From: Nitrososphaerota archaeon
GTDB lineage: Archaea; Thermoproteota; Nitrososphaeria; Nitrososphaerales; UBA57
Assembly (NCBI GenBank): GCA_002713205.1
Contig: PAVW01000015.1
Span: 1 to 5,241 of the forward strand
Length of the DNA stretch: 5,241 nt
Direction of reading: 5' to 3'
Part shown: one piece after another, positions 2,757 to 5,241 of the stretch
How positions within the stretch are numbered: the first letter of the stretch is position 1
Layout of the letters: every line of letters begins with the position of its first letter
Program-made: the position numbers and the translations under genes
Notes under the pieces: model-generated
The model's input: the letters and a program-made list of their open reading frames with translations, nothing else
Database searches by the model: none
Told to the model about the DNA's origin: nothing

Positions 2757-3161
2757 ATGATAGATGAACTAATAAAAAACGATAGTTTGCTTCAGTTTTT
2801 GTTGAATAATAGCCATTTTACAAAAACACAGATTGATTCGTTATTATTGGCTTTTGAGTACAAGATAGAGGGATATTCCCTGGGTGAAATAGTGAAATTA
2901 CGTGACTCTGGTCCTGTGACCAAGGGATCTTATGGAAGAAGTTTAAAGCAATCAAAAAGGAATTTCAGCAAGTCGTTGTATACGTTAGTATTAGCAATAT
3001 ACCTAGGTATATTGGATGTTAATACATTGAATTCAATGATTGAGTTATCTAATAAATTAAAATCAATTAAGGAACTTGAGTTACCTCCTAACATTATAGA
3101 ACAGGTTGAAGATTTAGTAGAAGAAATATGTGATAGGGTTACTGCTGATAAAGTTATTTAG
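2757..3161 (+). CDS. HTH DNA-binding protein, sigma-70 region 4 / LuxR / Tfx-like, about 134 aa
   Basis: FTKTQIDSLLLAFEYKIEGYSLGEIVKLRDSGPVTKGSYGRSLKQSKRNFSKSL matches the pattern LTxxQxxvl...GxSxxEIa...vtxGtvxxxlxxAxxnl. The tracked start at 2724 lies upstream of the TATA box and adds an odd MFIIQICITII leader, so I prefer the ATG at 2757. Confidence 0.65.
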   Translation: MIDELIKNDSLLQFLLNNSHFTKTQIDSLLLAFEYKIEGYSLGEIVKLRDSGPVTKGSYGRSLKQSKRNFSKSLYTLVLAIYLGILDVNTLNSMIELSNKLKSIKELELPPNIIEQVEDLVEEICDRVTADKVI

Positions 3162-3163
3162 TA

Positions 3164-3196
3164 GTGATGTCTTATGTGATATTATTGATATCAAGT
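3164..3196 (+). repeat. Direct repeat copy A (GTGATGT-CT-TATGTGATAT-TATTGATAT-CAAGT)
   Basis: It covers the start codon of the wHTH gene and matches copy B apart from 2-nt and 9-nt insertions. Confidence 0.55.
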
Positions 3197-3724
3197 GATT
3201 ATATTATATTAATTGGAATTACTGGTATTTCATTTTTATTCACAGGAATTATTATTTTATATTTACGTCAGAGTGTATTTGATATTCAACAAAGAAAGCA
3301 AGCTGGAGATATATTAACGGAGATTGTATCTACACTCAATAAATCAATAGATGAGAAGGAAAGTCGTATTATTGATTTAATGATGCGGGTTGATTTACTT
3401 GAATTACGTTTGCAAAAACAAGTGGGGCAAGAAATTAAAAGTGGTTCTAATGTTTATCCAATAACTAATATTAATAGAAGTGATATCACAGATAGTTTAA
3501 GTGATATCAATTTATCAGAAACAGAGGAAGTAATAATTAAGAGTTTAAGTAAGGAGCCTATGTTTGTTTCTGAAATTAGAACACAGATTAATAAGTCAAG
3601 GGAACATACAAGTAGGTTAGTTTCCAGGTTAAGTAAGTTAAATGTGATTAAGAAAAGAAATATTAATGGACAGGTTTCTTGTGAATTGACTGATCGGGGA
3701 AAGGATATTCTAGCTGGTTTGTGA
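3164..3724 (+). CDS. Membrane-tethered winged-helix (MarR/ArsR-like) DNA-binding protein, 186 aa
   Basis: The N-terminal hydrophobic segment is SYVILLISSDYIILIGITGISFLFTGIIILYL, followed by basic residues (C-terminus inside). A coiled-coil-like stretch follows (EKESRIIDLMMRVDLLELRLQKQ). The C-terminal wHTH is LSETEEVIIKSLSKEPMFVSEIRTQINKSREHTSRLVSRLSKLNVIKKRNINGQVSCELTDRGKDIL. The start (GTG 3164 or ATG 3167) is 2-5 nt after the upstream stop. Confidence 0.75.
   Translation: MMSYVILLISSDYIILIGITGISFLFTGIIILYLRQSVFDIQQRKQAGDILTEIVSTLNKSIDEKESRIIDLMMRVDLLELRLQKQVGQEIKSGSNVYPITNINRSDITDSLSDINLSETEEVIIKSLSKEPMFVSEIRTQINKSREHTSRLVSRLSKLNVIKKRNINGQVSCELTDRGKDILAGL
3186..3193. repeat. TGATATCA palindrome, site 1
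   Basis: Exact 8-bp palindrome, read as L-I-S codons. The extended 11-mer TGATATCAAGT is identical to site 4. Confidence 0.6.
3481..3488. repeat. TGATATCA palindrome, site 2
   Basis: GTGATATCAC, read as S-D-I-T. It is 21 bp from site 3. Confidence 0.6.
3502..3509. repeat. TGATATCA palindrome, site 3
   Basis: GTGATATCAA, read as S-D-I-N. Confidence 0.6.
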
Positions 3725-3742
3725 TGTTATGTGATATCAAGT
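3721..3742 (+). repeat. Direct repeat copy B (GTGATGT-TATGTGATAT-CAAGT)
   Basis: It covers the stop codon (TGA 3722-3724) of the wHTH gene. All 22 of its nt match copy A if two gaps are allowed. Confidence 0.55.
3732..3739. repeat. TGATATCA palindrome, site 4 (intergenic)
   Basis: GTGATATCAAGT, located outside the wHTH CDS and 35 nt upstream of the small RHH-like ORF. Confidence 0.6.
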
Positions 3743-3773
3743 TTAATGATATGGTTTGGAATGTGGTGAGATT

Positions 3774-3902
3774 ATGGTAAAAAAATATATTTGTATTACA
3801 AATGACGAGGATTTTAAAATAAGAGCTAGAAAAAGGCTCAAAGAACTTGCAATAGAGCAGGGATGGAGTCTCAAAGAAAGGGCACAAGCAGGACTTGATT
3901 AA
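3774..3902 (+). CDS. Small ribbon-helix-helix-like protein, 42 aa (not in the ORF track)
   Basis: My translation is MVKKYICITNDEDFKIRARKRLKELAIEQGWSLKERAQAGLD, which has a beta-strand-then-helices pattern like CopG/Arc. GGTGAG (3765-3770) sits 3 nt before the ATG, and a T7 terminator lies 43 nt downstream. The protein is short, so the call is tentative. Confidence 0.4.
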   Translation: MVKKYICITNDEDFKIRARKRLKELAIEQGWSLKERAQAGLD

Positions 3903-3944: not shown

Positions 3945-3951
3945 TTTTTTT
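3945..3951 (+). terminator. Oligo-T (T7) terminator of the plus-strand regulator operon
   Basis: TTTTTTT lies in an AT-only spacer between convergent genes. The complementary A6 run at 3901-3906 could act as the T-run for the minus-strand stomatin transcript. Confidence 0.45.
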
Positions 3952-3988: not shown

Positions 3989-4876
3989 TTAAGAAGTTGG
4001 TCTTTCCATAATACTTCTCAAAATATCTTTAATTTTTTCTATATCACTTGCAAGCTCTTTAAATCGTTTTTCGGCTTCAATTATTTTTCCTTCAGATTTT
4101 TGTTGGATCTTCTTTGTTGTCCCAAGGACTGTCCCAAGATCTGAAGTTGTGCCTCTATTACCTACTTCCGTAACTATAATGAGGTTCTTTTCTCTAGCAA
4201 CCTCTGCCCAGGTCTGGAGCTCTCTGAGTCTCAACGCTGCGGGGTCTTTACTGTAGGACTCTGCGGCTTTTGCCATATTTTTCGCTGCCTGTAATTCTCC
4301 CTCTGAGATTATTATCCTACTTCTTTTCTCTCTTTCTGCCTCTGCCTGCTTTGCAATTGCTCTCTGCATAACATCTGGTATAGCAACGTCCCTAATTGCC
4401 ACTGAGTTTACCTTTATTCCCCAGGGATTTGTTACTTCATCAAGTATAACCTTCATTTTCTTATTCAGTTCGTCCCTCTTGCTTAGAATGTCATCAAAAT
4501 CACATTGACCTATTACATCTCTAAGGGTAGTCTGAGAGAGAAGGCTGGAGGCGACAATATAATCTTGGACCTTTATAACGGCATCCAAGGGATCTGCAAC
4601 CTTTAGATAGACTACAGCATCAACATCAACCGTAACATTATCCCTTGTTATAATACCCTGTTTTGGAATATCTAGAGTAAGTATCCTTAGGTCAATAATT
4701 TTAATTTTATCAATTATTGGTATAACTATGAAGACTCCAGGACCCTTTGGGGTGCCAAGAACTCTTCCTAACCTGAAGATTACAGCTCTTTCGTACTCTT
4801 TGATAATTTTAATCATATTAACAAGGAGTATAATTGTCATAATTCCAAGGAATCCTGTTATGAGAAGGTGTTGCAT
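3989..4876 (-). CDS. Stomatin / prohibitin-homology (SPFH, band 7) membrane protein, 295 aa
   Basis: It has an N-terminal membrane hairpin and then the canonical IKEYERAVIFRLGR...TRDNVTVDVDAVVYLKV...TLRDVIG...WGIKV..V.IRDV..P..MQRAIAKQAEAEREKRSRII.SEGE. A C-terminal coiled-coil-like tail follows. Confidence 0.93.
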   Translation of the reverse strand: MQHLLITGFLGIMTIILLVNMIKIIKEYERAVIFRLGRVLGTPKGPGVFIVIPIIDKIKIIDLRILTLDIPKQGIITRDNVTVDVDAVVYLKVADPLDAVIKVQDYIVASSLLSQTTLRDVIGQCDFDDILSKRDELNKKMKVILDEVTNPWGIKVNSVAIRDVAIPDVMQRAIAKQAEAEREKRSRIIISEGELQAAKNMAKAAESYSKDPAALRLRELQTWAEVAREKNLIIVTEVGNRGTTSDLGTVLGTTKKIQQKSEGKIIEAEKRFKELASDIEKIKDILRSIMERPTS

Positions 4877-5158: not shown

Positions 5159-5241
5159 ATGAAAAAGAGGGCACGTAATCAATTTTTAATTGGGGGGTTA
5201 ATTATGTTAGTAGCCATTGGACTATATTTTTCTGTAGTAAC
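5159..5241 (+). CDS. Partial ORF (5' end only): basic N-terminus plus hydrophobic helix, running off the window
   Basis: My translation is MKKRARNQFLIGGLIMLVAIGLYFSVV..., with no stop before the window end. An alternative ATG at 5204 is preceded by GGGGGG. Only 27 codons are visible. Confidence 0.3.
   Translation, partial: MKKRARNQFLIGGLIMLVAIGLYFSVV

Follow-up and report, generated by a model that had tools for sequence, protein, structure and literature searches.

The window analyzed here is a stretch of 5,241 nucleotides (nt) from contig PAVW01000015.1 of a Nitrososphaerota archaeon (assembly GCA_002713205.1; class Nitrososphaeria). It contains two adjacent open reading frames (ORFs) on the + strand, ORF1 (2757–3161; 134 amino acids, aa) and ORF2 (3167–3724; 185 aa), followed on the same strand by ORF3 (3774–3902; 42 aa). 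A preliminary description of this sequence had placed the three ORFs at these positions, with gaps of 2–5 nt and about 50 nt and a run of seven T behind them, and all of this was confirmed, the second gap measuring 49 nt. It had also treated the trio as one unit. What stood of that idea was the pair, which turned up in all sampled loci of this class of ammonia-oxidizing archaea; ORF3 was restricted to the closest relatives. The finding is a core gene pair with a candidate operator beside the replication origin (oriC), not an odd local operon. ORF1 is a small, all-helical, cytoplasmic protein, and ORF2 is, as had been proposed, predicted to be a winged-helix protein tethered to the membrane, with virtually no domain outside the cytoplasm, and is apparently co-transcribed with its small upstream partner.

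Architecture and conservation of the ORF1–ORF2 pair

Four parts could be distinguished along ORF2, all on the + strand: a hydrophobic signal anchor (residues 12–33; 3200–3265), a coiled coil (residues 50–82; 3314–3412), a disordered linker (residues 87–111; 3425–3499) with a predicted local distance difference test score (pLDDT) below 50, and a winged helix-turn-helix (residues 118–184; 3518–3718). GTG at 3164, which gives 186 aa, and an in-frame GTG at 3176 are alternative starts. The AlphaFold2 model, for which 12 homologues were used as input, had a mean pLDDT of 75 and consisted of a single continuous helix (2–89), the disordered stretch, and the winged helix, the last composed of helices at 118–129, 134–141, and 145–157 and strands at 161–166 and 169–174. 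In a Foldseek search, this model matched MarR/ArsR proteins at a probability of 1.0 (92 matches at E ≤ 1e-3) and superposed on BigR and SqrR with root-mean-square deviations of 2.4–2.5 Å over 83–84 columns. A profile search of the PDB retrieved AdcR (E = 1.6e-4), with the entire domain covered. It is thus well supported that the C-terminus of ORF2 is a winged helix-turn-helix of the MarR/ArsR superfamily with a predicted topology that superposes on solved members, and the three methods agree with the anchor, coiled coil, and C-terminal winged helix of the preliminary description.

A HMMER scan covering 1.84 billion representatives placed ORF2 in a family of approximately 399 clusters (50% identity), most of which were related to it from end to end; the sampled relatives were 162–301 aa long. 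The N-terminal hydrophobic segment, with a 19-residue Kyte–Doolittle maximum of 2.6 in ORF2 itself, was present in 162 of the 175 family members sampled. A median of 7 residues, carrying 0.12 lysine plus arginine, preceded the segment, and 3.4 lysine plus arginine followed within 15 residues; this charge bias is the positive-inside pattern predicted for an anchor with the N-terminus outside and the C-terminus inside. The coiled coil, read from the sequence as about five heptads and lying within the long AlphaFold2 helix, has an almost perfect a/d pattern (L50, V54, L57, I61, K64, I68, L71, V75, L78, and L82) and is presumed to be the dimerization element. Its DLMMRV(E/D)LLEL segment was invariant across the marine clades. 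The linker is of low complexity and variable length, and the distance between the end of the hydrophobic segment and the REH motif ranged from 97 to 232 residues across the family. This motif lies in the recognition helix (residues 145–157), which contains KSREHTSR in the window (3593–3616), and its general form, [ST]REH[TV][SA]R, was near-universal. With a predicted transmembrane (TM) segment plus a DNA-binding domain that is likewise predicted, ORF2 would count as a transmembrane transcription regulator as defined in PMC10269533.

ORF1 is the member of a large family of its own: a profile search collected 4,554 clusters, all of them nameless or annotated as "hypothetical" and none with a Pfam domain. 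ORF1 itself had no match in Pfam, in NCBIfam, or among PDB sequences, nor did its model significantly match any viral predicted structure. That model (AlphaFold2, pLDDT 66) contained seven helices and no other secondary structure. A comparison with a related locus, L042 (L-numbers denote such loci, which were compared with the window), yielded 42 synonymous and 16 nonsynonymous codon differences, indicating that ORF1 is under clear purifying selection. Gene callers begin ORF1 at 2724, but the 11 extra codons comprise a TATA-like box and a palindrome, and their DNA was retained even in lineages in which that reading frame is closed. Because the upstream stretch is conserved as DNA in this way, 2757 is the better start.

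The species-level set consisted of 29 loci from GTDB genomes, 26 of which were not cut upstream by the end of a contig. In all 26 of these eligible loci, ORF1 lay immediately 5′ of ORF2; in the window, the gap is 2–5 nt. The two genes are accordingly a core pair, conserved in all Nitrososphaeria loci sampled. The gene for archaeal geranylgeranylglyceryl-phosphate synthase (GGGPS; 1575–2318 in the window, − strand) was the divergent upstream neighbor in 19 loci and was absent from five others with enough upstream sequence; GGGPS was considered as the regulated target, and these five loci weaken that candidate.

On the 3′ side, 26 loci extended far enough, and in 25 of them the initiator gene cdc6/orc1 lay 0.5–1.1 kb from ORF2; this linkage also held in the five loci in which GGGPS was not a neighbor. 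A complete Nitrosopumilaceae chromosome (L036) lacked a cdc6 gene within 6 kb. Two or three repeats of the GTTCCAGTGGAAATAAAGGGGT type, approximately 60 bp apart, were located between ORF2 and cdc6/orc1 in L009 (4027–4128), L013 (6951–7053), L018 (6932–7256), L042 (5616–5697), and many other loci, and we take them to match the canonical sequence of the archaeal origin recognition box (ORB). ORBs adjoining the initiator gene define archaeal origins (PMC4010727), and the repeats likely mark oriC in the Nitrososphaeria loci examined. No ORB was found inside the window; in its clade, ORF3, small ORFs, and a gene of the SPFH/Band_7 family, together approximately 2.4 kb, are inserted between ORF2 and the ORBs.

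The wider block, consisting of a large ORF, GGGPS, ORF1, ORF2, a gene for a protein of approximately 131 aa (p131), cdc6, and an ORF of approximately 500 aa, was syntenic in marine and soil lineages, so the adjacency to the origin may be mere inherited gene order. The p131 gene (L009: 4260–4655; L042: 5850–6263; L018: 6410–6781, − strand) always adjoined the ORB repeats, on a strand that varied by lineage. Its product shows a weak C-terminal winged-helix signal (Penicillinase_R, E ~1e-3) and may be an origin-associated factor.

Several further observations concern this region. The stretch between ORF2 and oriC was rearranged among close relatives (window 5159–5241; L042: 3547–3795; L167: 2246–2917 and 4272–4514). 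A gene for an 82-aa membrane protein follows the SPFH gene in the window and L167 and precedes it in L042, and L167 carries an additional gene of 223 aa. Directly 3′ of cdc6, one marine clade carried a gene for a tyrosine integrase (L009: 6071–7081; L012: 5763–6752). Three contigs labeled SAR202 bacterium, "bacterium", and Bathyarchaeota (L013, L024, and L040) carried the full thaumarchaeal block of GGGPS, ORF1, ORF2, and cdc6, and were probably mis-binned.

Only the window and the L042 clade had an intact ORF3, which is preceded by a GGTGAG Shine–Dalgarno sequence (3765–3770); identity was 81% in L042–L046, with the Shine–Dalgarno sequence retained, and the window and L042 differed at 6 synonymous and 8 nonsynonymous codons. 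L167, whose ORF2 is 83% identical, has the 223-aa gene in place of the 5′ two-thirds of ORF3, and L168 (ORF2 71% identical) lacks ORF3, with a convergent gene directly after ORF2. ORF3 was absent from all more distant lineages. It had been assigned to the ribbon-helix-helix proteins, but searches of Pfam, PHROG, PADLOC, and the PDB matched no such protein and assigned no family, so the assignment has no support from sequence searches. ORF3 is a lineage-specific small ORF, a passenger outside the conserved unit. The idea that it is a remnant of the ORF2 C-terminus, prompted by an ...AGL ending common to both and by a copy of the ORF2 5′ end behind the ORF2 stop codon, was rejected when hhalign detected no similarity. 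No run of five T occurs between ORF1, ORF2, and ORF3, and the run of seven T (3945–3951, + strand) is the likely transcription stop of the operon, oligo-T termination being established in archaea.

Promoter, palindromes, and flanking genes

The ORF1–ORF2 promoter was read from the sequence as a TATA-like box, TTTATAAT (2727–2734, + strand), whose center lies approximately 26 nt 5′ of the A in the ORF1 ATG. For leaderless transcripts in archaea, such a distance is usual. AT-rich boxes of the TTAAT type occurred at the equivalent position in other lineages. Between the box and the ATG is a perfect 18-nt palindrome, TAATACAAATTTGTATTA (2731–2748), which we call O1 and regard as a candidate operator. 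Its class-wide core, ATACAA-NN-TTGTAT (2733–2746), was found once per locus, always just 5′ of ORF1, in approximately 42 of 46 thaumarchaeal loci, both marine and soil; the form in soil Nitrososphaeraceae is ACTATACAAATTTGTATAGT. The arms were nearly invariant, and the center and flanks varied. There were just two further matches across 284 kb of these loci, and no further copy with two or fewer mismatches in the origin region.

A site between the TATA box and the start is the classical position of archaeal repressors. ORF2, as a presumed dimeric winged-helix protein, is the natural candidate for binding O1: a cognate protein–operator pair would be expected to combine, as here, a near-invariant recognition helix and an invariant palindrome.

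A second, shorter palindrome, O2, with the sequence TGATATCA, is located at the start of ORF2 (3186–3193). Three further exact copies (3481–3488, 3502–3509, and 3732–3739), like the first within or beside ORF2, bring the total in the window to four; the expected number was 0.17, and none of 200 shuffled sequences reached four. A copy at the ORF2 start was found in 16 of the 26 loci examined, including both soil and marine lineages. In the soil lineages, O2 lies approximately 25 nt after a TATA-like box, which suggests a possible separate promoter for ORF2. In the marine forms, part of the O2 signal may be a Shine–Dalgarno-like GTGAT plus the GTG start codon. Candidate roles for O2 are a second operator, perhaps for ORF1, and an RNA or translational element.

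Immediately behind the stop codon of ORF2, a degenerate copy, approximately 40 nt long, of the ORF2 5′ end was detected (3720–3760, + strand, versus 3164–3200). The alignment of both junctions showed that this copy was retained in the window, L042, L167, and L168, despite their different downstream genes. Separately, the ORF1 promoter/operator region (2724–2751) and the 5′ end of ORF3 (3774–3801) have a 28-nt stretch in common at 79% identity, including ATTTGTATTACAA. A G common to the two was lost in L042, and because of this loss the likeness is probably due to chance or a decaying duplicate.

The rest of the window is AT-rich, like the whole (approximately 28–39% GC). A gene for an Elf1-type zinc ribbon (2315–2596, − strand) lies beside GGGPS, and the SPFH/Band_7 gene (3989–4876, − strand) is convergent to ORF1–ORF3. 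A link between the latter and the pair had been raised as speculation, and it lost its footing because the SPFH gene adjoins the pair only in the window's own clade. The nearest relatives of all genes in the window came from marine metagenomes, Tara samples among them, and the remoter ones from genomes labeled Nitrosopumilales, Nitrosopolaris, and Nitrososphaeraceae, which marks the window as part of the chromosome of a marine Nitrososphaeria archaeon. A Rfam scan of the whole window gave no match to an RNA family at E ≤ 1, and a scan for bacterial-type promoters and terminators, which is inapplicable to archaea, found nothing above chance.

Further upstream, an insertion of approximately 860 nt (708–1569) was found between a MORN-like gene and GGGPS. 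It is absent from the close relatives L172, L173, L167, and L042, in which position 707 is joined directly to 1570. An imperfect direct repeat of 25 nt (683–707 and 1570–1594) borders the insertion on both sides, copies the 3′ end of GGGPS, and looks like an integration scar. The insertion contains small ORFs on the − strand (1001–1210 and 1207–1494), neither of which had a Pfam or viral match.

Interpretation of the pair

We consider the chance about even (roughly 0.5) that ORF2 represents a family of single-pass transmembrane transcription regulators that represses its own promoter via O1, with ORF1 as an obligate small partner. In such a system, we infer that the N-terminal signal anchor would place the remainder of ORF2 in the cytoplasm, the five-heptad coiled coil would make the protein a dimer, and the flexible linker would let the two winged-helix domains reach the DNA. 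The dimer would bind ATACAA-NN-TTGTAT between the TATA-like box and the leaderless ORF1 start and, like the archaeal repressors that act at that position, would repress the operon by blocking the recruitment of RNA polymerase. More speculatively, ORF1, made from the same transcript, could modulate ORF2 or contact DNA itself, and it may act through O2 at the ORF2 start. Regulators acting at the membrane are an established class, common in both archaea and bacteria, with approximately four per archaeal genome, 56% of them single-pass, in a published census (PMC10269533), and ArnR and ArnR1 are archaeal transmembrane regulators (PMC6396743).

Several results weigh against autoregulation of this kind. 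ORF2 passed no Pfam threshold, the best scores being 13.9 bits for HTH_5 (cut-off 22) and 12.1 for TrmB (cut-off 25.6), and every NCBIfam score was far under the curated cut-off. In the AlphaFold2 model, ORF2 lacks the N- and C-terminal dimerization helices of the MarR type: a single short helix (176–184) follows the wing, and the disordered linker and coiled coil precede the domain. ORF2 also has no sensor domain. The leaderless transcription start of ORF1 is placed by geometry only. When metagenomes were scanned with the 16-mer TATACAAATTTGTATA for a regulon, more than 120 chance matches in unrelated organisms were obtained, and an ORF1 homologue adjoined only one of the 80 loci listed, so that the scan defined no regulon. 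The protein that binds O1 could be ORF1, the neighboring winged-helix protein p131, or an unrelated factor, and autoregulation through O1 leaves O2 unexplained.

The constant position beside the origin invites another reading, in which ORF2, bound to a single conserved site near oriC, anchors origin-proximal DNA to the membrane and autoregulation is secondary. The pair would then couple the origin region to the envelope for positioning, segregation, or control of replication initiation, and the palindrome would be centromere-like. The short distance to cdc6/orc1 in nearly all loci, the ORB repeats in between, and the persistence of this linkage where GGGPS is missing are all consistent with such a role, and in a review of the cell cycle of archaea, a segregation machinery (SegA/SegB) is described for Sulfolobus only and none for Nitrososphaeria (PMC7617429). 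However, the origin region contains no further copy of O1, and the synteny of the whole block offers inherited gene order as an explanation of the adjacency. Moreover, ORF2 and the ORBs are set apart by variable genes in the window's clade, no ORB lies in the window itself, and the L036 chromosome lacks a nearby cdc6. We regard this tethering role as unlikely.

The preliminary description had drawn a parallel with extracytoplasmic function (ECF) sigma factors and their anti-sigma factors, the core of which is that ORF1 is the DNA binder and is held or released at the membrane by ORF2 in response to a membrane signal. The strict co-conservation and tight packing of the two genes fit this idea, and two distinct conserved palindromes, one ahead of each gene, could suit two DNA-binding proteins. 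In addition, helices 23–37, 42–48, and 56–82 of the marine ORF1 forms adopt a three-helix arrangement resembling a helix-turn-helix (HTH) in the AlphaFold2 model, and the best two PDB fold matches of ORF1 were the sigma-r4-like UPF0122 proteins 1s7o and 1xsv. These matches were insignificant, though (Foldseek E of 0.8–0.9 with TM-scores of 0.31–0.46; hhalign probability of 0.9% against a UPF0122 sequence). None of 34 diverse members of the ORF1 family matched a sigma or HTH family, and the segment of the would-be HTH helix 2 was deleted from most soil orthologues. The proposal that ORF1 is a sigma-r4/Tfx-like HTH protein lacks statistical support; for the marine forms, it is a reasonable guess and not established. 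ORF2, for its part, has a well-supported DNA-binding domain of its own, which an anti-factor would not need. We judge a sequestration pair to be quite improbable.

A membrane-held factor could also be set free by proteolysis, as are SREBP, ATF6, and Mga2: a signal-triggered cut in the linker would release a soluble winged-helix fragment. The linker that joins the coiled coil to the winged helix is disordered, of low complexity, and variable in length, which would suit such a cut, as would the lack of a sensor domain in ORF2 itself. No protease gene is conserved in the neighborhood, however, with the SPFH gene confined to the window's clade, and cleavage after the coiled coil would cost the fragment its only evident dimerization element, leaving a monomer ill-suited to a palindrome. 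Membrane-resident regulators, furthermore, commonly work without release (PMC10269533), and we think proteolytic release distinctly doubtful. A regulatory or partition module derived from a mobile element, also among the earlier suggestions, is scarcely credible: the integrase gene just past cdc6 in one marine clade (L009 and L012) and the variable ORF2–oriC region of the window's clade may point that way, but the pair is part of a syntenic block inherited vertically and keeps its chromosomal position from order to order, its divergence parallels that of its neighbors (ORF2 at 45% identity where GGGPS is at 79%, and at 24–33% where GGGPS is at approximately 50–55%), no tRNA or att-type boundary surrounds it, and searches of IMG/VR, PHROGs, PADLOC, and 50,697 phage records found no relatives.

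Significance and comparison with known systems

Nitrososphaeria are among the most abundant archaea of oceans and soils (PMC6593220), and very little is known of their gene regulation or chromosome segregation. Two unannotated protein families, present in every locus of the class that was sampled, are now joined to a precise candidate operator and to a conserved position by the replication origin. If the pair is an autoregulating membrane-bound regulator, a type with reversed topology and no sensor joins the transmembrane regulators. If it tethers the origin, it would offer a first way into the positioning of origins among Nitrososphaeria and would be a concrete archaeal version of the membrane attachment site of the replicon model. 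The more ordinary side of the finding is that membrane-resident regulators are already a known class and that two of the three proteins described as DNA-binding are unsupported as such.

Among known systems, the bacterial ToxR, CadC, and TcpP, as well as ArnR and ArnR1 of Sulfolobus, resemble ORF2 in that an anchor and a DNA-binding domain, both predicted in ORF2, are combined in one polypeptide that presumably acts at the membrane. Some transmembrane regulators also share their operon with the gene for a partner, as in the case of ToxS and TcpH. In ToxR and CadC, however, the DNA-binding domain is N-terminal, whereas the order is reversed in ORF2, with an N-terminal anchor and a C-terminal winged helix. 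ORF2 further differs from these regulators in having no periplasmic, HAMP, or other sensor domain, an apparent coiled-coil dimer, and a soluble helical partner. ArnR and ArnR1 likewise have the opposite topology, with an N-terminal HTH and two C-terminal TM helices in ArnR, and they possess a sensor domain (PMC6396743). Because ORF2 lies below the Pfam cut-offs, a census built on annotated DNA-binding domains would probably overlook it.

The MarR/ArsR regulators AdcR, ZitR, BigR, SqrR, and ST1710 have the same order of winged-helix elements as ORF2, and regulators of this superfamily likewise have palindromic sites at their own promoters, for which O1 is the candidate counterpart. Unlike them, ORF2 is predicted to be membrane-anchored and has neither the MarR dimerization helices nor metal sites of the ArsR type. 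On the side of ORF1, the UPF0122/YlxM proteins (1xsv and 1s7o) are collinear with it, LTxxQ corresponding to FTxxQ and VSRQAVY to ISxGAYYR, but the match is insignificant by every measure and the middle HTH helix is missing from most ORF1 orthologues.

In its layout, the pair recalls ECF sigma and anti-sigma factors: the gene for a small helical protein comes first, and that for a single-pass membrane protein, predicted to lie mostly in the cytoplasm, comes second. The parallel ends there. In Pfam and NCBIfam, ORF1 matched neither region 2 nor region 4 of sigma-70, and no sigma domain is detectable in it. In ORF2, the part predicted to be cytoplasmic comprises a winged helix preceded by a linker and a coiled coil, and no anti-sigma domain. 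Archaea use TBP and TFB, and to our knowledge have no sigma factors.

If ORF2 does act as a tether, the closest likenesses would be to the bacterial systems Noc, RacA–DivIVA, and ParB–PopZ, which also involve a sequence-specific DNA binder that touches the membrane and is encoded, and presumably bound, near the origin. These systems have many sites or spread along the DNA, and they reach the membrane through amphipathic helices or adaptor proteins. ORF2 has no homology to them, and in contrast it has a predicted TM segment of its own and one detectable site.

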